Positions 13,336 to 56,889 of a stretch of 64,000 nucleotides of DNA are shown piece by piece (position 1 is the stretch's first letter; each line of letters opens with the position of its first letter). Location of the stretch: the IMG/VR virus record IMGVR_UViG_3300020037_002893. The stretch is one strand, 5' to 3'. The notes under the pieces are model-generated. The model was not told where the DNA came from and did not search any database. It saw only the letters and a list, made by a program, of their open reading frames with translations. This DNA is from an uncultured virus (IMG/VR IMGVR_UViG_3300020037_002893). Taxonomy: Duplodnaviria > Heunggongvirae > Uroviricota > Caudoviricetes. A program made the position numbers and the translations under genes.

Positions 13336-14928
13336 TTAATCAGTCTCCTCTTCCTCCTCTTCCTCCTCCTCGTCCTCTTCCTGTCCGTCCCCTTCCCTAG
13401 CTTCCTTGCTGAACTTATTTCTGGCCAAGCGTCCCAGGGAGCGTGTGACCATCTCGAAGGCAATGCTGACTGCGTCAACTTGGTCATCATGTTCTCCCAC
13501 GGGAAACACTTCCAGCTCGTCGAGAAATTTCTTGTTCCATGCACCCTCCACAAGGAAGACTCGCTTGGCTTCCACAAGCACGAACCACGACATGGCGCGA
13601 GTCAGTTTATCAACTCCCTTCTTCGGGTTCTTCTTCCTGACTCTTACCTTGCCCCGCAGTGCCTCCTTGATGTCGTGATACCCGAGGGCGAAGCCTGCCA
13701 CGCCTTCCACGCCTATTAAGCGAACCGGATGGGGCTCTCCCTCCTCGATGTCATCCTCTGCAATCGTGACTAGACGCTTTCTCATCTTGGGCCACACCAG
13801 CTTGTGATGCGCTATGTCCATGATGTAAAGCTCCTGCCGTGCCACGTCCCATGCCAGCTTAGCTCCTGCGGAAAAATCATTCTTCTTCTTCACCTCCGCA
13901 GCCAAGTCCCATCCTCTTGCGCAGATGAGCCCCGACGTGGGAACCTGTGAAAGAGGGATCTTGATGAAGTCCTCTATGCTAACCTGACCCCCGTGCGCTG
14001 GGCGTGGCCTTCCCTGGAACTGGCTTTGCCACTCGTAATCCGGGAGGGTTGATCTCTTCGTCTTGAGGAACTTTGATGTTCTCCCAAGCTCCGGGCACAG
14101 GGGTTCCCCTTGCCCTCTCCCTAACGGGTCCGGCTCTTTTGGTGTGGGTTCCGCTATTGCCGGAAAGTTGTGAGCCTTGAACACCTCTCCGAGTTCCCCA
14201 AGCAGGGTAAGCTCCTTGACTCTTTCTTCTGAGCTGAGAAACCCTTGAAGATCCTCCGGGTGCCACCTTGTCCCGACCATGAAGACCTTGGCTTCCGGGG
14301 ATAGACGGGTGACACAGTCGGCAAAGAACCATCGAAGGACTTTCTTCCTCAGATGTTGGCTCTCCACCTCTTCACGTCCGGGGTAAATGTCATCTCCGAT
14401 GAACCAGTCAACTCGTCTACCGACAAGCTTCTTCCCAAAGGACACAGCGCGAAGCCTGCTCCCGTTCGTGGTTCCCCAATTCGTGATTCGGCACAGCTCC
14501 TCATCCATCCGAAGGCCAGGAAAGACCTCCTGATACCACGGGTGGCTGACATACCTCCTGGACTCCATCGAGGTTTCCTCCACCAGGGGGTAATGATACG
14601 ATGCAAGCCCTAGTTGGATGCCTGGACGATACCCCATGAGCCAAGCCATCGCGGCTCGAATCAACACATCCGTCTTCCCATGCTGAGGAGGAGCGGACAA
14701 CATCTGGTTGTTCGGTGTCTTTCCCTTGGCAGTGTCATCCACAATCTGAGCGAGTGCTTCATGGAACTTTCCAAGCACGCGGAAGGACTCGGGGCGAAGT
14801 CCGAAGAGAGTATAGAAGGCCACAAAGTCCTTGCCCGCGATGTTGACCAACTCCTTGAACAGACTACCAAGGACAAGGCTGGCATCCTCCATCACATCGG
14901 AGCGCCATTGACCGTCAGTATTCGTCAT
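13336..14928 (-). CDS. terL: terminase large subunit
   Basis: Walker A APPQHGKT, Walker B FIGDD, GTRWH..D, nuclease GWDLA and HDDQVDA; poly-acidic tail. Confidence 0.93.
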   Translation of the reverse strand: MTNTDGQWRSDVMEDASLVLGSLFKELVNIAGKDFVAFYTLFGLRPESFRVLGKFHEALAQIVDDTAKGKTPNNQMLSAPPQHGKTDVLIRAAMAWLMGYRPGIQLGLASYHYPLVEETSMESRRYVSHPWYQEVFPGLRMDEELCRITNWGTTNGSRLRAVSFGKKLVGRRVDWFIGDDIYPGREEVESQHLRKKVLRWFFADCVTRLSPEAKVFMVGTRWHPEDLQGFLSSEERVKELTLLGELGEVFKAHNFPAIAEPTPKEPDPLGRGQGEPLCPELGRTSKFLKTKRSTLPDYEWQSQFQGRPRPAHGGQVSIEDFIKIPLSQVPTSGLICARGWDLAAEVKKKNDFSAGAKLAWDVARQELYIMDIAHHKLVWPKMRKRLVTIAEDDIEEGEPHPVRLIGVEGVAGFALGYHDIKEALRGKVRVRKKNPKKGVDKLTRAMSWFVLVEAKRVFLVEGAWNKKFLDELEVFPVGEHDDQVDAVSIAFEMVTRSLGRLARNKFSKEAREGDGQEEDEEEEEEEEETD

Positions 14929-15511
14929 CGTCGTAATGATCGTCTTCCTCTTCCCTGTCTGATGCCCGCCTCTCAGGAGCCTGCACAAGAGGAGAGTCGG
15001 CATCAAGGGTGGATTCCCCTGAGTCTTTGAGGCGCTGTGCTAGGCGAGCAGCCAACGCAGCCAAGTAGCCAAGAGGAACCTTCTCTGCAATCTCCGTGAT
15101 GGAAGGCCCTCGGACCTGTATGGGGCCACCTCCGGCCCCAGTCAACTCGGTCTGCGTAATTCCATACCCTCTATCCTTCCCCTTTGCTGCCATGATGATG
15201 TGGGCGGCTCTAACGTTGCCCTGCGAGGCTGGCTCAATAAGCCCCTTGAACTCGATATGGTCGAGTGCCTTGTCCTTCGCAAGAGCTACCCTTCTAGCGT
15301 AAGCCGGGTATCGGTGCATCCAGTCGTGGTGCGTCCTCTGTGGGAGCTTCGCCATCTCCAACGCAAGGTATAGACATCCCCCTGTCTTGCGGAGAGCGGC
15401 ACACATGGCACGCATCCTATTCTTGCGATCAGTGTAAGACTGCGCATATTGCGACTCGTCCCTCTCCGCCTGGGTAGGAGGCCCCAACTTAATCTTTCTC
15501 CTTCCAGCCAT
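14915..15511 (-). CDS. terS: terminase small subunit
   Basis: HTH-like N-part, GKDRGY and ELTG.GGGPI motifs; overlaps the terL start. Confidence 0.75.
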   Translation of the reverse strand: MAGRRKIKLGPPTQAERDESQYAQSYTDRKNRMRAMCAALRKTGGCLYLALEMAKLPQRTHHDWMHRYPAYARRVALAKDKALDHIEFKGLIEPASQGNVRAAHIIMAAKGKDRGYGITQTELTGAGGGPIQVRGPSITEIAEKVPLGYLAALAARLAQRLKDSGESTLDADSPLVQAPERRASDREEEDDHYDDDEY

Positions 15512-15516
15512 GGTAG

Positions 15517-16194
15517 CTATTCCTCCCTTTCAAGTATCCACCCGCAGAACTCTCCCATCTGAAAAAACTTGCGTGTAGGCGGGAATATTACACTAAAATC
15601 CAGCTCGTTCAAGGGTCGTTGATACCCTGCGAGGGACAGTTCTTTCCGTAAAATATCCTCTGGAGGGGTTCCAGACCTAAGTTTCCAGTCCATAGTCAGT
15701 CTACGCAGTGCAGTTCCCACATACCCTGGAGGCGTGTTAATTTTATCCACCACCACCAGTGCCCCTCCTGGTTTAATCTTCTGTGTAAGCCCACGAAGCC
15801 ACGTTAGCCTTTCTCCGGGTGGCATGAACATTAGAACAAGAAAACACACAGCAAAATTAAATGGCTGGTAGGCATAGGAAAGGGCATCCGCCACCACTAT
15901 CGTTCCCGGCCCATGATATAGACTAGCCATCTCAGCTTCCTTCTCAATGGAAGTAAGTGATGCCTCCCTGTTTCTCACCGTGGACTCCAGGCATCTTGCT
16001 ATGTTTCCTGTGGAAGCTCCAATGTCATAAACAATTCCATTGGTAGGAATATAGTGTCTCCCGAAATGAGCCACGGACTCTGTCACTAAATCATACCAGG
16101 GAAGCTGCTCCCTTACATGGGCGTCGAAATTCTCAGCCACCTTGGTGTCGGCAAAGGTCCAACTTTCTGGTATCCAGCTTTTCTTGTCATTCAT
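15517..16194 (-). CDS. CmoA-like class I SAM-dependent enzyme
   Basis: W.F...VA..FD.HVR.Q.PWY, VYDIGASTG, L.F, GGALVV.DK and K...G....I..K pattern as in carboxy-SAM synthase CmoA. Confidence 0.75.
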   Translation of the reverse strand: MNDKKSWIPESWTFADTKVAENFDAHVREQLPWYDLVTESVAHFGRHYIPTNGIVYDIGASTGNIARCLESTVRNREASLTSIEKEAEMASLYHGPGTIVVADALSYAYQPFNFAVCFLVLMFMPPGERLTWLRGLTQKIKPGGALVVVDKINTPPGYVGTALRRLTMDWKLRSGTPPEDILRKELSLAGYQRPLNELDFSVIFPPTRKFFQMGEFCGWILEREE

Positions 16195-19765: not shown

Positions 19766-20527
19766 TTACTTTGGAAGGACAATCCTGCGGAGCTTTGGAG
19801 CCTCTCCAGGCTTGCGTAACGGGACGACAGGGAACCCCTCCGTATCCGAGTTCGCGTTACAACTCGAATCGACGACGCCTGCCACGACAATCCCCGTGCT
19901 TGTGTAGTCTTCCATGTTGGCCATTTCACGTAAAGTAACAGATGTCATCGGGAAGTCATAGCGTGGGGCCGACATGGAACAAGCCACGACAACCCCCTCA
20001 AATCCTCCTATCGTCATTCGTTTACCAGTCATATGTCTTACCAAATCCTCAGTATTGACACGGGCTTCACTACTTGGAATAGGGCTTATCAACTCTGCCT
20101 GAACGCTGGGGCCGCTGAGGGCACTGTAAAAGTTCCCTTCCACGTCCTGGACTACCCTCGTCTCATTCGACCTTGTAACCGATTGAAGTAGGAACTCCGG
20201 GCAAACGGGTGCCTGTGACGCCGCTAAGCCGAGACTTGATGAGAGGTAGAGAATATTGGACAATCTTCCTGCCGCATCCTCACTAGACATCCCTCTTAAC
20301 ACGTAGGCCAGATGCTCCATACCTGATACCCTGAAAAATCGCTTTTCATAGGTTATGGTATTATCGGGAGTGGCAAAGAGATCCTCCTCGGATGAATAAA
20401 CACTACGAAATGGATCTTCGCGTAGGACCGCTATAGTCGGAGGCAAGGGCGGAGCAACACCTATGCGCTGCCCATCCTTCGGACCTCCTATGAATAGGAT
20501 GCCCCCATCAGCACTACTCGTTGGCAT
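19766..20527 (-). CDS. hypothetical protein
   Basis: LFIGGPKDG N-terminus; ends RRIVLPK. Confidence 0.55.
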   Translation of the reverse strand: MPTSSADGGILFIGGPKDGQRIGVAPPLPPTIAVLREDPFRSVYSSEEDLFATPDNTITYEKRFFRVSGMEHLAYVLRGMSSEDAAGRLSNILYLSSSLGLAASQAPVCPEFLLQSVTRSNETRVVQDVEGNFYSALSGPSVQAELISPIPSSEARVNTEDLVRHMTGKRMTIGGFEGVVVACSMSAPRYDFPMTSVTLREMANMEDYTSTGIVVAGVVDSSCNANSDTEGFPVVPLRKPGEAPKLRRIVLPK

Positions 20528-21863: not shown

Positions 21864-22243
21864 GTCTTCGGCAGGGTTATGATTCTTTTCTTCTTTGTCT
21901 CTTCCGGCTGCATAGGGGGTTTCGGCTTCGGCTTGGCCGGGATCGTATTGCATACAAGGACAAGCAAATCTCTCATCTTCCAAGCAGAGGACTCCGTAAT
22001 CTCCAACTCAACTATCAGCTGTATCATATTCCAGAAGGCATGCCCCTCCGGTGTGTCTGCCCAGACAAAAGAAGCGCCAAGGGAGCCCCCGGGGGTTAAT
22101 GGCTTACTTTCATCATTGCCCTTCTCTCTTACTCTCGCTTCCCTGTTGATCTTCACCCTGCGTAGTAGTTCCACCGCATTGTGCTTGGAGAGGAACTCTC
22201 GCAACGGAGCGGATACCCTGTCTGTCTCGATGTCAAAGTTCAT
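21860..22243 (-). CDS. hypothetical protein (F.W..T.EG..FW family)
   Basis: GASFVWADTPEGHAFW; basic C-terminal motif. Confidence 0.55.
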   Translation of the reverse strand: MNFDIETDRVSAPLREFLSKHNAVELLRRVKINREARVREKGNDESKPLTPGGSLGASFVWADTPEGHAFWNMIQLIVELEITESSAWKMRDLLVLVCNTIPAKPKPKPPMQPEETKKKRIITLPKT

Positions 22244-22255: not shown

Positions 22256-22522
22256 TTAGTTCCTCGGCTTCCAGATGATAATACCCTTCGCGGTCGTGAC
22301 CTTCGAGACTACCCACTTATGCTGTCCCTGCTTGAACTCGAAATCCGCAACGGCATCCTTGAACGATGGGAACTTATCTATCGGATAGTTCCACGTTCCG
22401 TAAGATGCGTGTGTGACGTTCCCCGCCTTGTCCCTGCGTATAATCTTCATGCCGAAGATGGTCCAGGGTCCGACGATCTTTGGGGTGGTTGAGGTAGCTG
22501 TGACGGTAACTTTTCTTCTCAT
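22256..22522 (-). CDS. hypothetical protein, likely leaderless
   Basis: ATG 5 nt after TATAGT. Confidence 0.55.
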   Translation of the reverse strand: MRRKVTVTATSTTPKIVGPWTIFGMKIIRRDKAGNVTHASYGTWNYPIDKFPSFKDAVADFEFKQGQHKWVVSKVTTAKGIIIWKPRN

Positions 22523-24380: not shown

Positions 24381-24851
24381 TCATATCTTGGTTTCCTTCC
24401 TTGTTGGTAGGACTATCCTCCTGCCTGTGCGGTATGATGCTGACTTTGCAAATTCAATAAAATATTCTTGATACCATTTCTTCTCACCCCTTGCTGGCTC
24501 AGGCTTCTCCTGTCCACGTCTGGCAAGGGCGTATTCCGGCAGCTCGAATGATTCTGGCTTAACAGCGGGTAATCCATAGACCAGTGCCCATACTTTGTCC
24601 TGTTCGGTCCAGGACTCTAGGGATATTTGATGCACACACATCCAGAATAAATCCCCCTGCATTGATACTGCCCAGGAACCCCAATATGTCAGTGCACTGG
24701 ACAGCTTTTTAACACTGACCGTTATAGGGGGGTTGGGATTCGTTGCTGACAATCGCATCGCGGCCTCGTAAAGCAGTGGATACTTCGGAAGGAAGTGCTT
24801 CCGAAATAACTCTGGTATCGGATAGGGGTTGCGTTCTTCTTCCATAGTCAT
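24381..24851 (-). CDS. hypothetical protein
   Basis: W....QG..FW motif; RRIVLP near C-terminus. Confidence 0.55.
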   Translation of the reverse strand: MTMEEERNPYPIPELFRKHFLPKYPLLYEAAMRLSATNPNPPITVSVKKLSSALTYWGSWAVSMQGDLFWMCVHQISLESWTEQDKVWALVYGLPAVKPESFELPEYALARRGQEKPEPARGEKKWYQEYFIEFAKSASYRTGRRIVLPTRKETKI

Positions 24852-29176: not shown

Positions 29177-29428
29177 TCAATCCACTGAAACCTTCCTCCG
29201 CTTGGGTGTTGCCTCCTCTTCTTCTCCCTCCTTTGCCGAGGCAGTCAAGGCCCACTCCCTCCATGACATGACCCATCCCCTGTGAATGTGCCCCCCTTCC
29301 TTCGTGGTATAAAAGACAGTGTTCCCGTCCCGGAACACCACCTTCCTGGTGAGAGTTCCTGAAATACCCTCCTTGGTCAGGGTATCTCCCGTGCGTGGAT
29401 CGTTCCGTGGATCTCTCGTATCAGACAT
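29177..29428 (-). CDS. hypothetical protein
   Basis: RDPR.DP..GD; ends RRKVSVD. Confidence 0.5.
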   Translation of the reverse strand: MSDTRDPRNDPRTGDTLTKEGISGTLTRKVVFRDGNTVFYTTKEGGHIHRGWVMSWREWALTASAKEGEEEEATPKRRKVSVD

Positions 29429-30186: not shown

Positions 30187-30462
30187 TCAAACCAGTACCA
30201 CCTTCCTGCGGGTGGTTGGGGATGTCGGGGCAGAGCGTAAGGCCACCACCTCGATAAGTCCTCCCCCTGTGTCCGTGGACTTCCACCAGCGGATTTCCAC
30301 AGGCTGCTTTCTTCGGGCTGCTGCTTGGACACGAAGCAAGACTCCCGCCCACGTCTTTCCTCTTGTCGTGCCCTTATTACACTTGGCCCAGAGGGCCGCA
30401 TCCCGTGCGTCCACGACGACGTAGGGGGTAGCTATCTGCTTCTTCGTTGGGGTCAACTTCAT
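30187..30462 (-). CDS. hypothetical protein
   Basis: Stop supplied by the repeated motif; ends RRKVVLV. Confidence 0.5.
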   Translation of the reverse strand: MKLTPTKKQIATPYVVVDARDAALWAKCNKGTTRGKTWAGVLLRVQAAARRKQPVEIRWWKSTDTGGGLIEVVALRSAPTSPTTRRKVVLV

Positions 30463-32125: not shown

Positions 32126-32560
32126 TTATTTTAGCTTTACCTTCCTGCGGACAGAGGCTTCCCGAGGGAACAGGCCGGGGTCTTTAATGGCGTAGGGGGT
32201 AACATTACCAAGGCAGTCAAGACGGATTGCAACAACACGGGGAGTCCAGAGCTTGCGCTTTCCTGCCTTGCCTTTCTTGGACCATCCCCAGACCTCGATT
32301 ACTCCCTTGCTGAGAAGGAACTCCTTGGCGGAATTCGGGCACTCTTCCAGGATCTTGGTTACACGGGTGCTAACATGATCTCCCGAGGTAATCTGTAGCC
32401 CAGCGATGGCTCCGGGATAACAGGCGATCACGTCGATGAACCCAAAGAGGTCATACCGTTTCCCCACTGGACCAGCCTGACGAACGAACCGCTCCACCAG
32501 TCCGGAACGAATCCCTCTCTTCTCAAGATAGGTGGCTGTCCTTGCGGTGGTAGTGCTCAT
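32126..32560 (-). CDS. PD-(D/E)XK nuclease, resolvase-like
   Basis: DLFGFID.IA...GLQ.T. Confidence 0.6.
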   Translation of the reverse strand: MSTTTARTATYLEKRGIRSGLVERFVRQAGPVGKRYDLFGFIDVIACYPGAIAGLQITSGDHVSTRVTKILEECPNSAKEFLLSKGVIEVWGWSKKGKAGKRKLWTPRVVAIRLDCLGNVTPYAIKDPGLFPREASVRRKVKLK

Positions 32561-40321: not shown

Positions 40322-40783
40322 TTACTTTGCAGCCTTCACCGTGACGTTTTCAACGCCGACCTTTTCCTCAGAGCAGCGGCGAAGAATGGCCTCTCCGGCG
40401 TGTTCCTTGACGGCGGCCTGGGTAGCCGACACGATCTTGAGGAATGTTGCCTCATCGACCTCCTTGCGGAGCAGGTCGATGTTGACGACCATCGAGCTTG
40501 TCGTGGCGATCTCGACATCCAGAACAACTGGCTTCTCTTCGATCTGGCCCCGGACAGTGAAGGCGCGAACATTGCCCTCCTTCATCGCCTTGTAAAGACT
40601 CTGGCGATTCTTGCCTTCGTCCCTGCTCGCGTCATTCTTGACGCGATTCTGGATGAAGCAGGACATGGCGAGAACCTGCATATCCTTCGTTGCGGTGGGT
40701 TCCAAGGCGTCCTTGCCGAGGCTTACCTTGCGGCGACCGGATTGAACTGCGGAAGGGGCTTCAATGGTGGATTGTTTTTTCAT
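40322..40783 (-). CDS. hypothetical protein
   Basis: 153 aa ORF downstream of a promoter. Confidence 0.55.
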   Translation of the reverse strand: MKKQSTIEAPSAVQSGRRKVSLGKDALEPTATKDMQVLAMSCFIQNRVKNDASRDEGKNRQSLYKAMKEGNVRAFTVRGQIEEKPVVLDVEIATTSSMVVNIDLLRKEVDEATFLKIVSATQAAVKEHAGEAILRRCSEEKVGVENVTVKAAK

Positions 40784-41628: not shown

Positions 41629-44600
41629 TTAAAAACAGGGCTTCCGATCAAGCTCGACATTATACCAGTCCGGCTTGATTGCTCTGACATGCTTCATCTT
41701 CTTCATCCCGCCAAGGCTATCCCCCGGCCCTGCCACATCTGCGAGCAGAGGGAGCGGTGGGACAATCCCGAACCACTCACGCAGGGGGTTTGATTCCATG
41801 TAGAATTTCACAGCAGATGCGGCCTCCTCCACATGATCCTCCCGAACGTGGATGATCCCAGCATCGTGGATAAACCCGCACGGGTGCATGACTCTGTGAT
41901 CGCAGTCTCGTGAGAAACGGGTCACGCCCATCAATCCAAGGTCGGAACCGAACCTCTGCACAGGCGAGTTGACGCTCTGCCGCTGAGCTTCCTTCTGCAC
42001 TCCCTCGTCGTCAGAGAAGACGGAAGGAAGTCTGCGAAGGGCTCCATGCAGCGCACGGACAAATCCATGCTCCATCACGAAGTTTTTATAGTCCCTGTGC
42101 CAATAGTCCAATCCTGGAAAAGTCTCGAAGAATGTCTCCCGGACTTGCTTAGCTTCCGAGTCAGTAAACTCGATGCCATAATCCGTCTTGGCGTAGACCT
42201 TGAACTTCACCCACCACATCCCGTAAATAAACCCGAAGTTGATCGCCTTGGCCTGAAAGCGTTTGAACTCATAAAAGTCATCCATCGTCTTGATGTCCGA
42301 TGGCATGTGTCCAAAGAAACTAGACTGGTATGGGTTCTTGTTTCCCGCGTAGCTGGCAAACTGTTCGACAGAGATTCCTAGCGTGCTGGCTGCCGTGGCC
42401 GCGTGAATATCTCCCCCGCTCCGGTAGATGGCCAACATCGTGGGCTCCATTGCCATCCACGCTGCAATGCGAAGCTCGATCTGGCTCAAGTCACATTCAA
42501 GGAAGACCCAGCCCTTCGCAGGAATAAACAACTTTCGGAATGCTTCCGCCAGCTCACCTCGTTTGGGAAAATTCTGAGCATTCGGATCAGAGTTGTGATG
42601 GAAAATACCGCACGCCGAATAAGAGTGATCCTCTTCTACCTGGATGTCATATACTGAATAGCTTCCGCAAGGGTCAACCCTCTCAATGTAGACTCCTCCG
42701 GCGAATGCTGATACCTCTGATGAATCGCCACATGCCCCTCCTTGCTCGTCAATGCTAAGTTGTCCGGGTGGTTGTTGGTCCGATCCCCGTCGATGTGATG
42801 GATCGGAAGGCTGTCGGGAAGATCCTCCACGCGAATCCCCAGCATCTCCGACATCACTACGCGGTGAACGAAGTGCCGCTTCCCCCTGACTACCCGAGTC
42901 AAATAGCCCCGACCATCCGCGCAATCCCCCTTCGCGTTCGCAGGTTTCTTCCCGAAGCAAGGGTTTTTGTCCCCTCGTTTTGATTCCGAATACTTCAAGG
43001 CTTTGAGTTTCGCTAACTCGTCCCTCGGAATGTCCTCCGCCAAAATGGCTATAACCGTGTGATGGGAGATAGCTACGCTCTCCGCTACCTGCCCCATGGT
43101 TTGAAGCGTGGTTCTGTAAAGATCGACTACCTTGCGGCGGATGCGCGGGTCTGAGAGGTGTTGTTTTGATACTGACATGCCCAAGCATACGCCAGTTTTC
43201 GCTTTCGGTAAAGAGTCTATGCTGAAAAGTAGAGCGCAAAACTTCCCCATTTGAAAGGTGGCTATCAAACATTTCCTGTGTTGGCTTGATGTAAGTCTCA
43301 AGCACCCTGCGCCACCTTCCACGATGGGTCCAAACCAAATCACCTGCCACCACGTCTGCAATGCGCTTCTTTCCTGTAAGCGTGTCGATGAGCACGTCGG
43401 CATGGAGACAGGATGCCGTGCGACCTGTCACCGTGCGGTGAGCCCAAAAGGAAGGATGGACATCGTTGCGTCCGGGGGGCAGGTGCTGCCAGAATCCTGT
43501 AGGCTTGGAGATTCTCCGCAGATATGGCCTTCCCTTCGACAAGTAAGCATATTGGGATACCCCGGAAGATTCCTGCCCTAGTAAGATAAGACTCTGCGGC
43601 TCCGTTGGCTCCCTTCCAGGAAGGACGATGCGCCTGCGTCTCGATGGGGTGTCCACGTCCTCAAGGACAATGCCCACCTCCTTGAAAGCGTCAGAGATTT
43701 TCTTGGGCCAGTTCCCCTTCTTCAACGGAGTGACCGGGGCGTCTGATAGTTGCCTTCCGGTGCCCACATAGCTGGTCCGCATCTTCTCCAGCTTCTTGTA
43801 TTCGATAAGGTCCCTGACGAACTCCCTGTCCGTGAAGAACGGAAGATGGTCATTGGCTGACGTGCTGGGAACCCTCTCCTCCGGTGCGAGTCTCTGCGTG
43901 GTCTTCGTGAAGACTACAGGCTCAAGACAGAGCCCCCTTGGATGATTAAACAGCACGTCAAGCAGGAAGATTGGGCTTCCGAAGTTGAGAATCTCTCTGG
44001 CCGACTTCCCTTTGTTCCTTGGGTCGTTCAGGTGATCCAGCTTCAAGGCAGGGTGAACAGCTTGCACCAACTTCAAGTAAAGCTCCTTTTCCTTCCTCTC
44101 CACCAACTTCCCCAGAACGCTAAGCTGCTCCAGATCGACGCGGAGCCCCTGCCGCTCCATTCCTACGAATGCCTTCAAGGCTGGCATCTGAACAGAGTGA
44201 AACGTCTTCCAGTTCCTGGTGTCTTTTTTACCCTCCTTGATAAGCACATCAGCGAGTCGAAACGTGGCATCCACGTCCCCGCATCCATAAGCGAGCATCT
44301 TGTCGTGTGGGACAAGGTCCATTCGGCTCTTGCCCTGATGAATGGGATCTCGGTTGAACTCGTCGGCGTATCCGCTCATGGCAGGAACCCATCGCCGGAT
44401 ACAATCATCGAGCCCCTTTATCTCCATGTTCTCATCGACAAGAAAAGCAAGCTGGATAGTGTCTGCCCACCAACTTGGGACTTCGATACCGAGGTTCAGG
44501 AAGGCGTGAACGTCAAACTTGAAATTGTGTCCAATAATCTGGGTAGCTGGATTGGAAAATATCTGCTTCAACTGTCCGATGAGCTTGCTTCGTGTCCGTA

Positions 44601-47281: not shown

Positions 47282-48550
47282 TCATTCATCCTCTGATTCC
47301 CACTCCGGGAACTTGTCTGGAATATCCACTCGGACCTTCCTCCTGCTTGCCTGCTTGGAGAGTGCCTCAAGGGATGCCTTCCGGCGCTCCCTCTCCAGAT
47401 TGATTCTCTCAGCCGTGAGTCGTCTCAGATCGTCTCCTGACGCTTTTGATGGGGTTTCCCCCTGTGCATCCTCTTGAGCTGCCCTAGCCACTGCCTCGGG
47501 TCGGGAGAGGCCAAGCGAGAGAAGTTGCGCCACCCTTACCTCGGTCCAGGATAGTGATGTGCCGAGCTTCTGCTTACGCTTCCCGTATGCCTCCGCAAAT
47601 CGACCGTGAAACTTGCCAAGGAAGAACCAGATAGATGGCGCCTGTGGAGCCTCCTTCATCCAGCCGAACTCTCGCACCATGAAGGAAGACCAATGCTCAA
47701 TCACAAAGCAAAGGAAAAGGGCGAAGGTATCCCCGGACGGGTAAGCATCATTCCACAGCCTCTGCTTCTGCCAGAGTGCGGAGGACTCCCGGATCGAAAG
47801 CGGCAAAGAGGAGGCATCCGGATGGAAGGCACGAAGCGTGGAAAGCCACAAGGCGGAAATATCTTTCTTGTTCAAAAGACGGACAGCTTTCCTGGCCTCC
47901 CGCTTTCCTTCCTTCCGCTTCTGTATTTCTTGTGCCATCTCTTTTACTTCTGCCAGCCCTACGCGAGTCGCCTGCGGCTCGCAACTCCCTTCGGCTTCTT
48001 CTCTTTTCTCCTTCTTCCCTTTCTTATTACTTCTTAGGGGGTTCATTTTGACCCCCCCAGGGGGTTCATTTTGACCCCCCCCTGGGGGTTCATTTTGACC
48101 CCCCTCTTGATGGTATTCTTCGTCTGTTTTTGCAAACGTTTTCAAACGCTTTGGAGTGGTCAACATCTCGGGTGGGTTCCAGCTCAGATTGATTTCATAG
48201 TAGGGGGTGCCCTGCCTTACTTCGCTTTCCGAATCGTAGCGAAGGATAATTCCGCTGTTCAACATACTGGAAATACTCCGCTTGATGGTGGAGTCTGACA
48301 GTCCCGTGCCCCGATGAAAGAATCTTCCATCGTGCCCTTGGACACCGTCCCGGAACTGTTTTCTTGATATTTGCTCCGCTGCCTTGTTCCAACCAAAGGT
48401 CCGGTCGAAGATGAAGGCAAGAAGGGATAGCTCCGCAGGAGAGATGTGTCGTGTCCAGTTGCGAGAGATATACCGCCACCAGTCTCTTTGATTGATCGGA
48501 TTGTTGTGCTTGACGGGTGGCTTCTTATCGGGTAGGTTTTCATTGTCCAT
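47282..48550 (-). CDS. replication initiator (lambda O-like wHTH N-terminus)
   Basis: I..RT.GW.K....IS..QF..G, TGLS..TI.R....L...G.I; internal iterons. Confidence 0.75.
   Translation of the reverse strand: MDNENLPDKKPPVKHNNPINQRDWWRYISRNWTRHISPAELSLLAFIFDRTFGWNKAAEQISRKQFRDGVQGHDGRFFHRGTGLSDSTIKRSISSMLNSGIILRYDSESEVRQGTPYYEINLSWNPPEMLTTPKRLKTFAKTDEEYHQEGGQNEPPGGGQNEPPGGVKMNPLRSNKKGKKEKREEAEGSCEPQATRVGLAEVKEMAQEIQKRKEGKREARKAVRLLNKKDISALWLSTLRAFHPDASSLPLSIRESSALWQKQRLWNDAYPSGDTFALFLCFVIEHWSSFMVREFGWMKEAPQAPSIWFFLGKFHGRFAEAYGKRKQKLGTSLSWTEVRVAQLLSLGLSRPEAVARAAQEDAQGETPSKASGDDLRRLTAERINLERERRKASLEALSKQASRRKVRVDIPDKFPEWESEDE
48037..48103. repeat. three 20-bp iterons, putative replication origin
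   Basis: GGGGGTTCATTTTGACCCCC at 48037, 48060 and 48084, next to a pyrimidine/AT-rich tract. Confidence 0.8.
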
Positions 48551-48802: not shown

Positions 48803-49030
48803 TCAGTTTCTACCTCCATTGTTGATCTTCTTCCCGTCGAACCTCCCAGACATGACACCCCCTCCGAACAGTTTAATCTCCGGCTTCTCCTGCCTGTCCA
48901 CGCTCTCGTTGTTTGCGGACAGTGCCTTCTCGATGGCCTTCGTGACATCCTTGCAGGACGTGCCCGTGAACCCTTGCGCGTCGATGGTTGGCCTTCCGCA
49001 CGGGTCGATAGTGATGGTGATGGTCTTCAT
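48803..49030 (-). CDS. DUF2997-like protein
   Basis: I.I.I...G....A.GF.G.SC...T..IE.AL. Confidence 0.75.
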   Translation of the reverse strand: MKTITITIDPCGRPTIDAQGFTGTSCKDVTKAIEKALSANNESVDRQEKPEIKLFGGGVMSGRFDGKKINNGGRN

Positions 49031-49064: not shown

Positions 49065-49595
49065 TTACTTCACACCGAGGCGAAGCTGGATGTTCCCGTT
49101 CTTGTCCTTGGTCGTCCCGAGAACGTTGTGTCCCGCCTTCACTGCCGCGTTGATTGCCGCGTGCTTGGTGTATCCCTGCATGAGCTTGCCGATGGAGTGT
49201 AGCGTCTGCTCCGTATCGTCCCTTCGGCCCGACCAGTGCTCCGCCTTCCCGGCAAAGGGAGCGCCGAGAAACCGCTTGATGGCCCCCCTTCCCTTTTTGC
49301 TAAGCGGGTTGGGACCGGGGCTTCCGTAGTCGTCGAAGACGGGAGTATATCCTCCCGCTGCATCGTCCTTGACCAGTCCAATATCAAAGTAAGAATCTTG
49401 GACCCGGATGACATAGTCGCAGACATCGGACTTCAAGCCCATGTGCTTCTGGAGTTGATCCTGGTAATACATCCGGGGAATAGCGTTCTCCTCCAGCGTG
49501 ATGTTGACCCCCTCATTGCGGAGTTCCTCGATTGCCTTCTTGAGTGCGGGGATGTCCTTGATGGGAACGGTCTTGACTTGGGTGGTATGACTCAT
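49065..49595 (-). CDS. DUF1257 / Ycf35-like protein
   Basis: MSH.T..KT..I.D...L..A..EL, DIG, D.Y, L.Q.Y and A...G motifs. Confidence 0.75.
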   Translation of the reverse strand: MSHTTQVKTVPIKDIPALKKAIEELRNEGVNITLEENAIPRMYYQDQLQKHMGLKSDVCDYVIRVQDSYFDIGLVKDDAAGGYTPVFDDYGSPGPNPLSKKGRGAIKRFLGAPFAGKAEHWSGRRDDTEQTLHSIGKLMQGYTKHAAINAAVKAGHNVLGTTKDKNGNIQLRLGVK

Positions 49596-49623: not shown

Positions 49624-49983
49624 TTAGTTGGAAAGAACTCCTGAGAGTTGAAGTGATTGGATGACGGCAATCTCTGCGGCCACGGCATCCTCATAGTCTG
49701 CGAAGTAGAACGTGCTGTCGTCCCCTATCAGAGACTCGCGGCGAAGGGAGCCACCAAAGTCCTCCGGGTCAACGTCCGAATTGGAGAACGTGCCCTCCGA
49801 CCAGACACCACCCGCAGAATCTGCCCAGCGAATATACCACTTCTGGGTAGGTTGATACCATTCGATTAGTGTCTCCCTTTTGATCTCTGCCTCGCCGAAC
49901 TGGCGAAGGTCGAGTCCCTGTCCCCGCTTGTGCTGTAACCCAAAAATGGAGCCGTCTGGATGAATTGTGATGACCTGTTGCAT
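49624..49983 (-). CDS. hypothetical protein
   Basis: I.PDG.I..L, IE......W, F..Y.DA..AE; leaderless-type promoter. Confidence 0.55.
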   Translation of the reverse strand: MQQVITIHPDGSIFGLQHKRGQGLDLRQFGEAEIKRETLIEWYQPTQKWYIRWADSAGGVWSEGTFSNSDVDPEDFGGSLRRESLIGDDSTFYFADYEDAVAAEIAVIQSLQLSGVLSN

Positions 49984-50071: not shown

Positions 50072-50746
50072 CTACTTGGGGAGGACGATCCGGCGACGTG
50101 GGCCATATACTGCTCGGGTTTCCTTCTCTCCTGTCTCCGTGTTGACATAGGTAAGGATTTCCAAGGGCTCGGGGACTACCACACGAGCTGGCTGGATCTC
50201 ATCGAAGACCACCCCGGAATCCTCCAGGCAGTCTGGATCGAAAGAAGCACGATATGTTGTCGGGGTATAGTATCCCATCGAGAGGGCCTCCTCAAGGGAG
50301 ATCCTGTGAAGCCTCCCGAGGGATTCCAGAACATTCACATTGGACTGTGGCGCCTGCCCTGTTGGGACCAGTATCTTGGTAAGTGCTCCACCTTCCAGAG
50401 CTTGGAAGAGGAAACTACACGCCTGGGGGAACTGTCCCAATCCCCTCCGCTTGTGGTAGCACTTGAGAAAGAGCCCTTCCTGAACTTGGAACGTGGCTCG
50501 GGTGATCTCTCCTCCCATCTTGGCATCCCTATCGCTCAAGGAAGCCGAACGACTATAGGAGCCACGGAGAAGCTCCACCCCGAAGCCAGGAGTCTTCGAG
50601 GCCACCCCGATTTGAAGCTCCCTCTTCTTAACCTCCCGGACCTCCGGGTTGTAGACGAACCATTGCGTTGATGAGGAGAACTGGTTTCCGGTTTCAGTGC
50701 CGTATTGGAGGACGAGCGTTACCTTGACTTTCATAGTAGCATTCAT
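50072..50746 (-). CDS. hypothetical protein
   Basis: Ends RRRIVLPK. Confidence 0.55.
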   Translation of the reverse strand: MNATMKVKVTLVLQYGTETGNQFSSSTQWFVYNPEVREVKKRELQIGVASKTPGFGVELLRGSYSRSASLSDRDAKMGGEITRATFQVQEGLFLKCYHKRRGLGQFPQACSFLFQALEGGALTKILVPTGQAPQSNVNVLESLGRLHRISLEEALSMGYYTPTTYRASFDPDCLEDSGVVFDEIQPARVVVPEPLEILTYVNTETGEKETRAVYGPRRRIVLPK

Positions 50747-50781: not shown

Positions 50782-51492
50782 TCAAGCCTCGTCATCAAGG
50801 GAGACTCTCCTGCGTGAGGGCTTCGGCTTGGTGGGGAAGATGGTTCCATCTTCCGCCTCCGATTCAATGTTGCTGGACGCTGGCCTCGCATTCTGCTCGG
50901 CCCACCGTCGCATCGCGGCGAAGTCCTCTGCGAAGGCATCCTTGATCGGGACACTGTTGCGAAGCTCCGCAAGGATGAGATCCCCGGTGAGGGTAACTCC
51001 TTCGTGAAAGGCAGTCGTGACGGCTGCGTTTACTGCGGCCTCAAGCTCTGCCCCGACATAGCCTTTGCTCTCCTGAATGACCTTGCCAAGCTTAGTAACC
51101 TTGGAAGGGTTATGATTCCTTTTGGTAATGTGGATAGAAAGGATTTCAGCTCGCTCAACCGAGTTGGGGGGAGCGATGTTGAACAGCTCCTCCAAGCGTC
51201 CCTTGCGGAGCAGCTCGGGAGGTAGGCTGTCAACCCGATTGGCTGTGAACACCCAGAAGATGTTTTTCGTGGACTCTGCCATGTGGGTAAGGAGAGATCC
51301 CATGACCCTGCGGGAGGTTCCCGAATCTCCCCCTGCTTGGCGAGGGTCGAGCCCTGCCTTGTCAATCTCGTCGATCCACGCCACGCAGTTGTGGCTGACG
51401 AATCCATTCGAGATATAAGTATTCGGGAAATCGCACGCGAGATCATAGACTTCCTGCGGGGTTTCCATTCTGATGATGCTTTTAATTTTCAT
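50782..51492 (-). CDS. AAA ATPase C-terminal half preceded by a 35-aa C-intein (split intein)
   Basis: MKIKSI...VYDL....N.Y.SNGFVSHN|CVAWIDEIDK (Walker B), TAN, LPPELLRKGR. Confidence 0.92.
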   Translation of the reverse strand: MKIKSIIRMETPQEVYDLACDFPNTYISNGFVSHNCVAWIDEIDKAGLDPRQAGGDSGTSRRVMGSLLTHMAESTKNIFWVFTANRVDSLPPELLRKGRLEELFNIAPPNSVERAEILSIHITKRNHNPSKVTKLGKVIQESKGYVGAELEAAVNAAVTTAFHEGVTLTGDLILAELRNSVPIKDAFAEDFAAMRRWAEQNARPASSNIESEAEDGTIFPTKPKPSRRRVSLDDEA

Positions 51493-52412
51493 GGTTTGGC
51501 GTGTTTTGGTTGATTGCTAGTAGAGAGAGTTTTGCGATCATCCCATTTGAGGATGTTCTTGCGGGCGCGGATAACGGTATAGGTGAGGCCAAGGGCAAGG
51601 CAACGCGGGTCGCGGGACCACTCAGCCATGGATTTGACTTCGCCACGAAAGGCAAGGCGGCGGGCTCTGGAACTTCCCGACGATACTTCGCGGCGACTGC
51701 CCCAAAGGCAGTTGTGCCACGAGTAACCTGCGGTCTTATATTTGCGGCAGAGCGCGGCACCTTTGGGCCGCTCGCCCATATCGGAAAGAAACTGCTCGAA
51801 AGAGTTCCATGATGGGTCGAAGGGAACCCGTAAATGTTTGGCATCGCGCCGGGCAACCGCCCACGCCTTCCAAGTTGAGGAACCGGAGGCTCCGTGGGTG
51901 AGTGCCGGGGTATGCTCCCGGAGGTAGTCGTGCGGGATGCAACCGCACGAAGTGGTGGTTTTGGTTAGGCGCATGGTGGTGACTTTACCGCAATCGCACC
52001 GGCATACCCATTTAACGGAACCGGAATGCTCGTCCCGTGTCATGGAGTCCTGTAAAACCAACAACCGGCCAAAGCGGCGACCCACAAGGCGGGAAGAGCG
52101 ATGGATTGGCTTACCGCCGCTCTTCCCTCCCCTTGTGATATTGTAGCCCGTCTGGATGGTTCCATGCTCGGCAATCAAACGGACTTCCTCGGCGTAACAT
52201 TCGGAAACGCTACCGCGAAATACCACCTCGACCGAGAAGGCCCCTGCCCCGTGCTTTTGCAAGGCACGGAACATTTTGTGGCATGAGGACTTTTTCATAT
52301 GGCCGCGCAGGCGTTTGATTAGGTTCGTGGTGACCCCGTAGTAGGATTGGCCGGTGGCATCATGCGTCAGGCGATATACAACTGCCGCACTCTTCGTGCC
52401 GAACGATGTCAT
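51489..52412 (-). CDS. free-standing homing endonuclease (GIY-YIG plus degenerate HNH/zinc-finger domain) between the split-intein halves
   Basis: VY.L......YYG.T..L.KR...H, E..LI and GYN; G.RFGRL.V, W.C.CDCG, SCGC, F..F..DMG.RP, NC.W. Confidence 0.85.
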   Translation of the reverse strand: MTSFGTKSAAVVYRLTHDATGQSYYGVTTNLIKRLRGHMKKSSCHKMFRALQKHGAGAFSVEVVFRGSVSECYAEEVRLIAEHGTIQTGYNITRGGKSGGKPIHRSSRLVGRRFGRLLVLQDSMTRDEHSGSVKWVCRCDCGKVTTMRLTKTTTSCGCIPHDYLREHTPALTHGASGSSTWKAWAVARRDAKHLRVPFDPSWNSFEQFLSDMGERPKGAALCRKYKTAGYSWHNCLWGSRREVSSGSSRARRLAFRGEVKSMAEWSRDPRCLALGLTYTVIRARKNILKWDDRKTLSTSNQPKHAKP

Positions 52413-53730
52413 CCCCTTCACGAAGGTGTTTGGCTTCGCGCCATTCAAGCGACCCGTCTGGATTGCGGATAAGAAATTTGTGTTCATCGGTTACGCGGAT
52501 CAAATTATCCGATTCATCCACAATTTCAAGAACTGTTTTTGAGCCTCTCGGAATCCACCCATGCACGCGGCTTTCAACCCGCTCACCGGACTCATCCACG
52601 GTGGCGATTTGCAAACCTTGCAAATCCCCTTCGGGTTGGATTGCGCCGCGAAGGTCATCGACCGTGCGCTCCGATCCATCGGCCATCAGAATTTTAGTAT
52701 CCCCGGTCACGCAAGGAGCCATGGCGTCCAGCATCATCAGAGCGGCACGGACCTTGCCTTCCGTCTCACCGACAAGGCTACCGAAGACCCGCGACACATC
52801 GAGCCTGATGAGAGGCATCCCCAAGATGTGAGCAACGCATCTTACTGCGATACTCTTCCCTGTCCCCGGCACGCCAACCAACATCGTTCCCTTGGGGGGG
52901 CGAACCCCGAATTGCTTAGCCTCCGGGGTGAACGCTTTCCGGCTTTTCTGGAGCCATGCCTTGAAGAGGTCCAGCCCCCCGAGAGATGCGGGATCAAGGG
53001 AATAGTGCAATTCAAGGACTTCGCTCCTCTTGATGATTTCCGTCTTGGCTTCCATGACCACCCGGCAGAAGTCAGGCACAGGAGTATCGGGCCACGTACC
53101 CGCGTTCTTGACAATGGCGCGGGCCATGATGTTCTCAGCTTCCAAGGAAGTCATGCCGATAGCGGAGTTGACGATAACTTCCTTTTCCTCTTTGGAATAA
53201 GCCGGGATGTCAGTCTCAGACACGGACTTCACCGTCCGCTCGTAGCTCTCAAGGATCTCCTCCCGTGTGGGAAGTTCAAAGTCGAGGATGCTAACATGAT
53301 GGGTAAGCGTCTCCGGGATGGAGAACGTTGGAGGGACAATCAGAATGAGACGGTGTCCCGTGTCGCAGTAAGTGCGAGCGGCCTCCTTGATAGAGCGAAG
53401 GAGGGCAGGATGATCGGCCACCACGAAGTCGGTATCCATCATGGCGTAGATGCCGGGGGGGAGGGGCGCGGCTCCGGCGTTCTCCGTATCTTGAACCATT
53501 CCCAGGGCGGAGAACGGGTCCACGGTCCCGTCGCAGATTCTCCTCCCTGCCTGCTCCTGGACCCATCCATCACGGCAATTCCAGAACCTAAAGGCGATTG
53601 AATGCTGATGCGCGAAATCCTCAAGGGAGAGAAGGCATCGCGCCTCCTCCTTGGTCCGGGTGATGATTACTCCAACGCTTGCGTAATGCAACGTGGCCAG
53701 CTCTGCGAGGTATGCGTTTTTTGATGTCAT
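52360..53730 (-). CDS. Ycf46-like AAA ATPase N-terminal half plus 117-aa N-intein
   Basis: GGL...K.WL, PKG..L.GVPGTGKS (Walker A), VGE.E; AP|CVTGDT.I.M.DG and VT.EH.F. Confidence 0.92.
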   Translation of the reverse strand: MTSKNAYLAELATLHYASVGVIITRTKEEARCLLSLEDFAHQHSIAFRFWNCRDGWVQEQAGRRICDGTVDPFSALGMVQDTENAGAAPLPPGIYAMMDTDFVVADHPALLRSIKEAARTYCDTGHRLILIVPPTFSIPETLTHHVSILDFELPTREEILESYERTVKSVSETDIPAYSKEEKEVIVNSAIGMTSLEAENIMARAIVKNAGTWPDTPVPDFCRVVMEAKTEIIKRSEVLELHYSLDPASLGGLDLFKAWLQKSRKAFTPEAKQFGVRPPKGTMLVGVPGTGKSIAVRCVAHILGMPLIRLDVSRVFGSLVGETEGKVRAALMMLDAMAPCVTGDTKILMADGSERTVDDLRGAIQPEGDLQGLQIATVDESGERVESRVHGWIPRGSKTVLEIVDESDNLIRVTDEHKFLIRNPDGSLEWREAKHLREGDDIVRHEECGSCISPDA

Positions 53731-53805
53731 GGCTATATGCTTGGATAGACTAATAATATAACTCTTTTTTGGGTAAAGTAAACGACTGCTTTTTTGCAAA
53801 CGTTT

Positions 53806-55680: not shown

Positions 55681-55871
55681 GGGAGCCTCTTTCGTTTACT
55701 CTTGAACCTAAGCATAACCATCCAGAGCCATGGGCCACACACGAACGCGAGGAACTTTTCCATGATCCGGTGGAGGAGGTAGGGTGAGCGAAGGTAAACG
55801 CCGAAGATAAGCCTGCCTATTACAGTCCAACATAGAAGGAAGGTAACTGCGTAAACTATCAACGTTGTCAT
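55677..55871 (-). CDS. small membrane protein
   Basis: Hydrophobic; stop lies within the repeated motif. Confidence 0.45.
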   Translation of the reverse strand: MTTLIVYAVTFLLCWTVIGRLIFGVYLRSPYLLHRIMEKFLAFVCGPWLWMVMLRFKSKRKRLP

Positions 55872-56497
55872 TGCTTACTCTCCTCTGTTGTTCTGCGTCC
55901 CATCAGGATGCCATTCGAGAGTTTGTATTCGACACCATCCTCCGTTGGTTTGGGACATTGACAGGCTTCCGAATAGTCTAGGCCGCAAATAGAGCAGATG
56001 TCACCCAGCTCCCCGCTCTCTTCATCGTAGCCGAGGCAGTCTACCTCAAAACTTACTCTCTTCCATCCAGAGTCTCCCTGGAGTTGGATTCTGGGAAGCC
56101 TGTCTTGCTTCGCCTCATTGAACGTTTGATTCATTGCCAGATTATTCCATCTGTGGAAGTGGGCGAGGTAGCTCCTCCATCCTGCATGGTAATTGTTCAC
56201 GGTCACATCAAGGTCGGCATTGTGATTGTGGACGATCCCTTGATGATGTCCCGCGCAGAGCATGACCCCGTTGTCAAGCCGCAAGGCCAAGGCAGGGTAT
56301 AGGCTCTTTGGCCTGATGTGGTGCGCCTGTAGTTGTGCCAGCCGATAGAACACTTCCTCCCCGCAAAGGGCACAGACACCCATCGTGGGAGATCCTGGAG
56401 AGGGGAGTGTTGGGCGGGAGTCCCGGAGGAGAAGCAGCCTTCGCCACTTCGTCAGGTAGTAGTCTGTCGCCTCTGCGATGATGGCAGTCTCTTTCAT
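55868..56497 (-). CDS. HNH-like protein with extra C-terminal Cys-rich domain
   Basis: C.LCG, L.AHHI.P, NG..LC..HH. Confidence 0.7.
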   Translation of the reverse strand: MKETAIIAEATDYYLTKWRRLLLLRDSRPTLPSPGSPTMGVCALCGEEVFYRLAQLQAHHIRPKSLYPALALRLDNGVMLCAGHHQGIVHNHNADLDVTVNNYHAGWRSYLAHFHRWNNLAMNQTFNEAKQDRLPRIQLQGDSGWKRVSFEVDCLGYDEESGELGDICSICGLDYSEACQCPKPTEDGVEYKLSNGILMGRRTTEESKQ

Positions 56498-56889
56498 TTC
56501 TTTGGCAGATGAATTTTTCTTAATACTAAGCCAGTCCTGCGGACTTCATTCCTCACGCTCGGCTCCTCCTCCTTTTTCCTACCGACAAGGAACTCGTCCC
56601 TGATTTCCTTTTCAAACACTGCCAAGGTGGCAGAAGGCCAAGCACCCTCGAAAGCTATTTCACGCCATATATTCTCACGACTACTCCGTCTGAAATAAAA
56701 GGCTCCTTGGAGGCAGGCTCCTGGTGCTTCGTTCTCGTATGCCTTCTTGTCAAGGTATCGCATGCCGTCTTCTCCGTGGCGGGAGAGATCCTCAAGGAAC
56801 ACGATCCAGAGGAAGGGGTAGTCAGGAAGGAACGCAGCGCGAAGGAGTGCCCCCTTGGTGCCGTCCAGATATGGAGGTGATTGATTCAT
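56494..56889 (-). CDS. hypothetical protein
   Basis: L.GAF.F......W; ends RKIHLPKK. Confidence 0.5.
   Translation of the reverse strand: MNQSPPYLDGTKGALLRAAFLPDYPFLWIVFLEDLSRHGEDGMRYLDKKAYENEAPGACLQGAFYFRRSSRENIWREIAFEGAWPSATLAVFEKEIRDEFLVGRKKEEEPSVRNEVRRTGLVLRKIHLPKK

Follow-up and report, generated by a model that had tools for sequence, protein, structure and literature searches.

A short arginine-based peptide near the ends of seventeen proteins of an uncultured tailed phage, and its possible role as a docking tag for a Cdc48-like ATPase module

Why should some seventeen unrelated proteins of a single phage carry the same short peptide, for the most part close to their ends? This question is raised by a stretch of 64,000 nucleotides from an uncultured virus (IMG/VR record IMGVR_UViG_3300020037_002893), hereafter called the window, which represents a tailed phage with nearly all of its genes on the minus strand. 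A sequence-only reading of the window had drawn attention to the peptide and proposed it as a tag for a common hub, either a clamp, the replication compartment, an AAA machine or a protease. In the present analysis the peptide was found far more often at protein ends than shuffled proteins would yield, and at the same places in most of the orthologues of a related phage. The phage's own Cdc48-like, Ycf46-type tandem AAA+ ATPase and the beta-sandwich protein encoded beside it end in a peptide of the same kind. We tentatively propose, with slightly less than even confidence, that the peptide is a short linear docking motif that addresses the tagged proteins to the ATPase module as clients or cofactors.

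All 17 of the peptides originally listed were recovered in frame in minus-strand genes, using a six-frame scan and a refined gene set. Six of them are N-terminal, ten are C-terminal (1 to 14 residues from the end) and one is internal, in the PolA polymerase. The core common to all copies is R-x-[IV]-x-[LVI], mostly preceded by one or two further Arg, and two variants can be told apart: RRKVx[LVI], seen in 11 copies, as at the end of the ATPase, and an RRIVLP[KT]-like form, seen in six, as at the end of the ATPase neighbour. The copies and their carriers are the following:

15485..15502, minus strand: RRKIKL, residues 4-9 of the TerS-like protein 14915-15511 (labelled TerS from its position upstream of TerL only)
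22502..22519, minus strand: RRKVTV, residues 2-7 of the 88-residue protein 22256-22522
33429..33446, minus strand: RRKVTL, residues 7-12 of the Cas4-like exonuclease 32574-33464
35548..35565, minus strand: RRKVSI, residues 3-8 of the RecA/UvsX-like protein 34360-35571, next to a Lys-rich linker
35884..35901, minus strand: RRRIPV, residues 19-24 of the 117-residue protein 35602-35955
40718..40735, minus strand: RRKVSL, residues 17-22 of the 153-residue protein 40322-40783
19775..19792, minus strand: LRRIVL, then PK and the stop, C-terminus of the 253-residue protein 19766-20527
21872..21889, minus strand: KRIITL, then PKT and the stop, C-terminus of the 127-residue protein 21860-22243; fits only the looser core R-x-I-x-L
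24408..24425, minus strand: GRRIVL, then P, eight residues from the end of the 156-residue protein 24381-24851
29183..29200, minus strand: RRKVSV, then D and the stop, C-terminus of the 83-residue protein 29177-29428, behind an acidic linker
30193..30210, minus strand: RRKVVL, then V and the stop, C-terminus of the 91-residue protein 30187-30462
32132..32149, minus strand: RRKVKL, then K and the stop, C-terminus of the 151-residue protein 32126-32581
47327..47344, minus strand: RRKVRV, 14 residues from the end of the initiator-like protein 47282-48550
50081..50098, minus strand: RRRIVL, then PK and the stop, C-terminus of the beta-sandwich protein 50072-50785 ('tail237' family), directly downstream of the AAA ATPase
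50797..50814, minus strand: RRRVSL, then DDEA and the stop, C-terminus of the AAA ATPase C-part 50782-51492
56506..56523, minus strand: LRKIHL, then PKK and the stop, C-terminus of the 131-residue protein 56494-56889
43621..43638, minus strand: RRRIVL, then PG, residues 588-593 of PolA, in a loop of low conservation that separates the TSYVG and HPSF..HRTVTGR motifs
39159..39176, minus strand: candidate copy KRRAVA, then M, N-terminus of the acidic-tailed, 438-residue protein 37878-39194
38337-38354, minus strand: candidate copy RKRVPV, then D, internal in the same protein 37878-39194

The carriers are therefore 17 proteins, possibly 18 with the one at 37878-39194.

Enrichment was assessed in 97 minus-strand proteins (19,644 residues) against 500 shuffles, counting a match as terminal when it lay within 25 residues of an end. 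The pattern RR[KR][IV]x[LVI] was seen 13 times, 12 of them terminal, versus 0.23 (0.07 terminal) in whole-protein shuffles and 0.29 (0.06 terminal) when shuffling was confined to blocks of 25 residues, which keeps the local richness in Arg and Lys. With the RRIVLP-type copies added, the union motif was seen 19 times, 16 of them terminal in 16 proteins, versus 0.55 and 0.14 in the shuffles, and for every value 0/500 shuffles equalled the observed count. The motif definition was set after seeing the data; the excess is nonetheless about 50-fold. The frequency of the motif stands far above that of a shuffled proteome.

The description of the peptide as a protein-level motif whose DNA differs between copies was also borne out. 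The Arg residues of the copies are encoded by six codons (AGG 12, AGA 11, CGC 9, CGG 3, CGA 1, CGT 1), and the 18-nucleotide motif segments have a mean pairwise DNA identity of 0.52 (136 pairs). The codon variety and the 52% identity exclude a DNA repeat, or a ribosome-binding site (Shine-Dalgarno sequence) read in frame, as the source of the motif. The RecA gene has an ordinary AGGAGG site upstream of its ATG. Matches to 'KRVIL' in the six-frame translation were removed, as they arise when a promoter-like DNA repeat located between genes is translated, and are not copies of the motif.

This intergenic repeat consists of an imperfect palindrome, TTTGAAAACGTTTGCAAA, followed after about 11 bases by TTTACTTTnCCCAAAAAAGrGTTATnnTA, and its pattern has 10 matches versus 0.36 expected. 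Judged from its sequence, the palindrome TTTGAAAACGTTTGCAAA is a possible operator. Several of the tagged genes terminate just upstream of a copy of the repeat. The copies located ahead of gene blocks are:

21414-21508, minus strand: promoter-like repeat
28385-28479, minus strand: promoter-like repeat
40785-40879, minus strand: promoter-like repeat
45330-45424, minus strand: promoter-like repeat
53729-53823, minus strand: promoter-like repeat
57918-58012, minus strand: promoter-like repeat

The sequence-only reading had further characterised the carriers as unrelated proteins, mostly of replication and early functions, with the motif in disordered tails and not on the capsid or portal, and this picture agrees with what was found. 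An all-against-all BLASTP comparison of 18 carriers returned no match at E <= 0.01, the sole near-exception being the 56494 and 24381 proteins, which share a stretch of 14 residues (pairwise E 0.004). The proteins that bear the motif serve in replication, recombination or packaging or are small early ones, and the strict form was not found at the ends of the capsid, portal, protease or TerL proteins of the window. Two tails that were modelled have predicted local distance difference test (pLDDT) values below 60 beside folded domains above 90, consistent with predicted disorder.

Conservation was followed in other phages. No near-DNA relative of window positions 30000-52000 was matched in the phage collection. 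The nearest whole relatives compared were G002 (74.6 kb; RecA 61% identical) and G003 (77.5 kb, complete; RecA 42% identical), while G001 is a 42-kb piece of the window's own virus that adds nothing to the window. In G002, a phage with 35-60% identity, 8/10 orthologous carriers retain R-x-h-x-h (h, hydrophobic) at the equivalent end or loop, where the rate in protein interiors predicts about 0.12 per stretch of 35 residues. The retained peptides are:

G002 RecA: MSRSLKLDD
G002 Cas4-like protein: KRRRQISF, same end
G002 TerS-like protein: MKGRKILL
G002 orthologue of the 35602 protein: RRRLVKL, ahead of the conserved core
G002 initiator-like protein: GRRVALP, same tail (RAVTL in G003)
G002 PolA: TRFIRLPK, same loop (RRRVLEF in G003)
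G002 ATPase: SRAVTMEG, then the stop
G002 ATPase neighbour: RRRIILRR..

The motif is missing from the G002 orthologues of the 32126 and 40322 proteins, the latter having only TRKIGR, which does not fit; the 22256-22522 protein has no orthologue in G002 or G003. Among RecA homologues from a large protein collection, all six that are at least 58% identical keep an N-terminal R-x-h-x-h-(D/E)(D/E) while the linker varies freely, and below 58% identity the pattern occurs in 1/11, elsewhere in the protein. A TerS-like homologue with 89% identity also retains the motif. In all three sets of comparisons the peptide is conserved, and because the orthologues keep it at the same place, the motif is, on this sequence evidence, under selection, with a wording that drifts and that fades with distance. 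A general regular expression gave 23 terminal matches in the window versus 6.5 (0/500 shuffles reach this value) and, as a modest excess, 18 versus 9.7 in G002 (4/500). Similar tails occur in a cultured relative, Aeromonas phage HJ05 (OQ594355.1, locus L177), in which the ATPase neighbour ends in RNRKLKL and other proteins end in RRRIVLPPTAD, KRRIVIPDSGDKS and RRITISQE. All genes of this HJ05 region are annotated as 'hypothetical protein'.

Which protein could read such a tag? Two of the copies lie at the ends of an ATPase and of the protein encoded directly downstream of it (50072-50785), within a group of genes that includes the following:

52360..53799, minus strand: AAA ATPase N-part, with a degenerate D1-like domain, the first portion of the active AAA domain and an intein N-part
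51489..52487, minus strand: open reading frame (ORF) of a GIY-YIG endonuclease, between the two AAA pieces
50782..51492, minus strand: AAA ATPase C-part, with the intein C-part, the remainder of AAA domain and lid, and a flexible tail
49624..49983, minus strand: module protein of 119 residues (phrog_38408), found in 32/80 AAA-bearing viral loci
49065..49595, minus strand: DUF1257 (Ycf35-like), found in 59/80 AAA-bearing viral loci
48803..49030, minus strand: DUF2997 (PF11211, E 1e-9), found in 53/80 AAA-bearing viral loci

The ATPase gene (50782-53799) is fractured into separate ORFs, and a 93%-identical homologue, P0002 (540 residues), is uninterrupted; from its sequence, the window gene looks like a split intein with a free-standing homing endonuclease in between. 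With a PF00004 ATPase and genes for DUF1257 and DUF2997 alongside, the locus belongs to the Ycf46/DUF1257/DUF2997 module, the DUF1257 assignment resting on a weak PF06868 match (E 3.8e-4, 49065-49694). The AAA/DUF1257/DUF2997 module is located directly upstream of the initiator, DnaB and PolA genes. An AF2 model made on the uninterrupted homologue (pLDDT 88) aligned over its full length with the D1-D2 domains of Cdc48/p97 in Foldseek (8u7t_A, E 4.2e-22, TMq 0.64), which suggests a tandem AAA+ fold. The 540-residue protein begins at the D1-like alpha/beta domain and has no cofactor-binding N domain, and the D1 consensus contains no P-loop. The consensus of the active AAA domain carries the Walker A and B motifs (GPPGTGKS, IDEIDK) and a pore-loop-like segment, SLVGQSE or SLVGESEE, which we take to be the pore loop by comparison with classical AAA proteins. 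The last 26 residues of the model have pLDDT values below 50. PADLOC returned only weak generic AAA matches (IetA, TRIP13) and no defence-system assignment; a scan of viral contigs with the AAA C-part alone gave seven pattern matches, none of them confirmed; a simple search for reduced-alphabet 5-mers shared across the 80 AAA-bearing viral loci was uninformative; and PDB sequence searches with DUF1257, DUF2997 and the 37878-39194 protein returned nothing meaningful.

The window ATPase ends in KPKPSRRRVSLDDEA (RRRVSLDDEA). Many of the phage-type proteins among 120 listed homologues have a basic run and an R-x-h-x-h ending, such as RRRISLDDEV or RRRVIVPVD, and GKRKVTL and RRVSLN are examples of ATPase endings in viral loci. 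Bacterial homologues linked to DUF1257 and DUF2997 end in QFVPIQLEL, ERKLDL or RKLEL. ATPase matches at E <= 1e-20 comprise 64 records, and cultured phages with the same ATPase include Aeromonas HJ05, Agrobacterium JP1 and the Rhizobium L338C, Rhodobacter RcMenchie, Pseudomonas SM1/PaMx31 and Mycobacterium Catdawg groups.

The neighbour family is present in 22/80 viral AAA loci, and in an alignment of 23 sequences (these 22 and the window copy) about 18/23 members end in R-x-h-x-h, with the Arg conserved in at least 90%. The window protein is predicted to have a confident beta-rich domain (residues 1-185) followed by a flexible tail of 38 residues (pLDDT 50-60). No Pfam family was assigned to the 23 members, so that a DUF3150 label was not confirmed, and Foldseek on pdb gave no match at E <= 0.001; a wide VIA-align search reached a best Z of 4.2, with none of at least 5, which is not evidence of a new fold, and the ESM Atlas yielded no usable match for the neighbour. 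The tails of the ATPase and of its neighbour resemble each other more within a locus (mean best 6-mer score 16.0) than across loci (13.9 +/- 0.7), a value reached in 12/5000 permutations.

Docking of the neighbour tail was modelled by co-folding four chains, supplied as alignments: ATPase residues 1-512, without the ATPase tail, the module proteins DUF1257 and DUF2997, and the C-terminal 55 residues of the neighbour, which served as the scored partner. The score was 0.37 (runs 0.37, 0.33 and 0.40) versus 0.00 for the best of three controls, and replacing the ATPase alone gave 0.00. The runs agree in at least 90% of contacts, with a partner pLDDT of at least 58. In calibration, the mark was reached by 116/157 solved complexes and 2/215 mismatched pairs, and the range at or below 0.60 holds 18/157 solved complexes together with both passing mismatches; the present co-fold is unlike the calibration set in having four chains and in using alignments of our own making. 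The model gives weak support, and docking of the neighbour tail on the ATPase is to that degree weakly supported, with a hint that the segment would sit on the ATPase rather than on DUF1257 or DUF2997.

Among the hubs that had been listed at the outset, the evidence points to the AAA machine, favoured because the tagged proteins share their peptide with the ends of the ATPase and of its neighbour; the likeness of the ATPase and neighbour tails within each phage and the co-fold result lean the same way, and a clamp is unlikely, as discussed below. On this reading, the tag is the phage's version of the ending found on its own ATPase and beta-sandwich neighbour, and it would most likely direct replication, recombination, packaging and small early proteins to the ATPase module. 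The likely clients, enzymes bound to DNA and small proteins of the early phase, would be remodelled by the ATPase or freed from the complexes in which they sit, much as Cdc48/p97 and, on MuA, ClpX do. The tag on the ATPase itself might reflect a shared site on a multivalent adaptor, or self-regulation by a pseudo-client tail. Client tails would presumably use the same site as the neighbour tail, and their later fate we infer from the same analogies.

Several results weigh against this proposal. Strong as it is in the window, the spread of the tag over the proteome is modest, or not seen, in other phages with the module: G003, the more distant relative, retains the motif in 3/9 orthologues (neighbour, initiator and PolA loop) and gives 10 terminal matches versus 7.0 with the general regular expression (71/500 shuffles reach this value); a position-specific scoring matrix built from the window copies shows no excess of terminal matches (3 versus 2.0 in G002, 2 versus 1.7 in G003); and a fixed regular expression applied to the last 20 residues in 80 AAA-bearing viral loci of 21 kb gives 24 matches versus 16.0 +/- 3.9. 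Many ATPase homologues end otherwise, the cyanobacterial Ycf46 in LSDRIQRQLQ for example. The permutation test on the likeness between ATPase and neighbour tails ignores kinship and shared base composition. The AF2 model does not predict docking of the ATPase tail in cis, and the co-fold scored the tail of the neighbour rather than that of a client and passed only weakly. Because every PolA relative found also encodes the ATPase, there is no natural contrast without it.

Other explanations of the peptide have to be set beside docking on the ATPase. A tag read by the host, either a ClpX-type degron like the C-terminus of MuA or a DnaK-type chaperone tag, might set when early and replication proteins are turned over or remodelled. 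The motif is similar to RRKKAI, the ClpX degron with which MuA ends (excerpt of PMC8138137), its copies lie at protein ends as ClpX degrons do (excerpt of PMC12723719), and 5/10 C-terminal copies end no more than two residues from the stop. Such a tag is hard to reconcile with the internal copy conserved in the PolA loop of three phages, with several copies placed 8 to 14 residues from the end, and with the family-wide occurrence of this ending on the ATPase and the neighbour that the phage itself encodes, where the two are alike within each phage; we regard it as unlikely. The peptide might instead dock proteins on a DNA-bound hub other than the ATPase, such as the 37878-39194 protein, a processivity factor or the host clamp. 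The carriers are indeed mostly DNA enzymes (PolA, RecA, the Cas4-like nuclease, the initiator-like and TerS-like proteins), and PolA carries its copy in an insertion flanked by the TSYVG and HPSF..TGR motifs, presumably the site of the thioredoxin-binding loop of T7 polymerase. The 37878-39194 protein, with a Cys-containing N-terminal domain, a long acidic C-terminal half, two repeats of about 40 residues and its own KRRAVAM start, may be a phage single-stranded DNA-binding protein (SSB), but family searches gave no SSB match. The motif lacks Gln, the defining residue of the clamp-binding motif (excerpt of PMC11139829), and PF00712 was unmatched in G001, G002 and G003 (0/3) and matched in 10/14 control genomes. 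With no Gln in the motif and no beta-clamp gene found in G001, G002 or G003, a clamp is, on sequence grounds, unlikely to be the reader, though the host may provide one. The family-wide tag on the ATPase and its neighbour would also be left unexplained by a DNA-bound hub, which altogether seems an improbable answer.

There may also be no single receptor, the tails acting as generic arms that bind polyanions (DNA or RNA) or as beta-strand 'stickers' that pair with each other and so bring the proteins together at high concentration. Arg/Lys-rich tails, often next to Lys-rich linkers as in RecA, and the alternation of h-x-h, which suits a beta-strand, would fit such a role. However, residue order matters, as block shuffles give 0.06 terminal copies versus 12 seen, and orthologues keep the Arg and the two hydrophobic positions while the adjoining basic residues drift, so that we hold generic arms to be quite improbable. 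As to chance, composition, a translated DNA repeat or an in-frame ribosome-binding site, AGG and AGA codons are common in the copies and a genuine intergenic repeat does produce false KRVIL matches in six-frame translation; the shuffles, the six Arg codons, the low DNA identity and the conservation at protein level refute this explanation, and its probability is close to nil.

The docking proposal can be extended further, to the idea that orphan Ycf46-type, Cdc48-like unfoldases recognise their clients and cofactors by this peptide code, which the phage would have placed on its polymerase, recombinase, nuclease, initiator, small terminase and a dozen early proteins, with the ATPase pulling them off DNA or complexes and recycling them; this wider version is rather doubtful. 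If true, it would describe a viral 'segregase' system with a readable address label, and the code R-x-h-x-h (often followed by D/E) would explain how cellular and plastid Ycf46 proteins choose their partners. Ycf46-type AAA+ proteins are widespread in phages, many bacteria and cyanobacteria, and the family is without known substrates; should the ATPase be the reader, the carriers would be its first substrates and the peptide its first recognition rule, and the phage would run its own Cdc48-like remodelling on its replication proteins. Shared docking peptides organise replication machines, as the clamp-, PCNA- and SSB-interaction motifs do, and the present one differs from these in sequence. 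A literature search, largely at the level of abstracts, gave no account of the motif or of the function of the phage module. A tag of six residues on 17 named proteins is a direct experimental handle, and cultured phages with the module and similar tails exist (HJ05).

The wider gene content of the window is that of a tailed phage. The main genes named by Pfam or PHROG are:

3270-4979: capsid
10765-13281: portal, with an intein (LAGLIDADG domain, Pfam)
13336-15006: TerL
32574-33557: Cas4-like exonuclease (as named; the motif numbering above follows the ORF 32574-33464)
34360-35571: RecA/UvsX-like recombinase
41629-45399: UDG-exo-PolA polymerase
47282-48550: initiator-like protein

Further names obtained in this way are a prohead protease, asparagine synthase, C5 methyltransferases, a ParB-like protein, RNase H, a Holliday-junction resolvase, a helicase, a primase, DnaB and GroES. 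The PolA protein contains an intein placed after TVTGRTAS and has 1256 residues, versus 981 in G002 and 945 in G003. A protein with two PAS domains is encoded amid the structural genes (9404-10285). The 386-residue protein at 30838-31998, which has the best codon-usage score in the window, combines a weak SH3-like N-terminus, an acidic stretch, Lys/Ala/Val-rich repeats (KKVAVPAKKAVATKKV) and a C-terminal phrog_17202 domain, and its sequence suggests that it may be a DNA-coating protein. A stretch of about 110 bp is nearly identical at about 55450-55590 and 60930-61070, the ORFs 59780-60481 and 58340-58567 share an identical N-terminus of 18 residues (MKRKPQELTKDALVKFTT), and the ORFs 59442-59774 and 59164-59445 resemble paralogues.

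Comparison with known systems helps to place the peptide. A Tat signal (S/T-R-R-x-F-L-K and an h-region) was rejected, as 10/17 copies are C-terminal and the N-terminal ones precede polar or charged linkers. The consensus of basophilic kinases is R-R/K-x-S/T-h, and a site of this kind was likewise rejected, with Ser or Thr before the last hydrophobic residue in 7/17 copies and K, V, R, P or H in the others. In phage T4, the C-termini of gp43, gp33 and gp55 bind the clamp gp45, and the likeness with clamp-binding ends is that one short peptide, in disordered N- or C-termini or internally, is carried by many unrelated DNA-handling proteins and addresses one hub. The bacterial beta-clamp motif is Q-phi-x-[LM]-[FL] or Q-phi-x-[LM]-x-[FL] (excerpt of PMC11139829), whereas the phage motif is Arg-based: no Gln stands in the core or ahead of it in any of the 17 copies, and all begin with Arg or Lys. 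The phage peptide differs from clamp-binding ends also in terminating an AAA+ ATPase and its partner.

Cofactors of p97 bear the VIM, VBM and SHP motifs, and PUB and PUL domains bind the p97 C-terminal tail. The phage ATPase resembles Cdc48/p97 in its predicted tandem D1-D2 AAA+ fold and in a disordered C-terminal tail with a short motif, and it would likewise recruit partners via short peptides. It differs in lacking the N domain, the reader of most cofactor motifs in p97, in having no ubiquitin system, and in that its own tail and the client tails share the motif. With ClpX and MuA, whose C-terminal degron is RRKKAI (excerpt of PMC8138137), the likeness lies in a basic run followed by aliphatic residues at the protein end and in an AAA+ unfoldase that remodels a DNA-bound phage complex; the phage motif differs in being also N-terminal and in a loop, in its fixed h-x-h spacing and in a candidate reader that is phage-encoded. 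The closest set by gene content is that of Ycf46, Ycf35 and DUF2997. The literature searched, mostly abstracts, gives no function or recognition motif for it; a DUF2997-ycf35-fed7 cluster is described in cyanobacteria (excerpt of PMC4284462). The same families adjoin in the window, in 53 to 59/80 viral loci and in 19 to 21/80 cellular loci, and what sets the phage apart from the cyanobacterial set is the proteome-wide tag.

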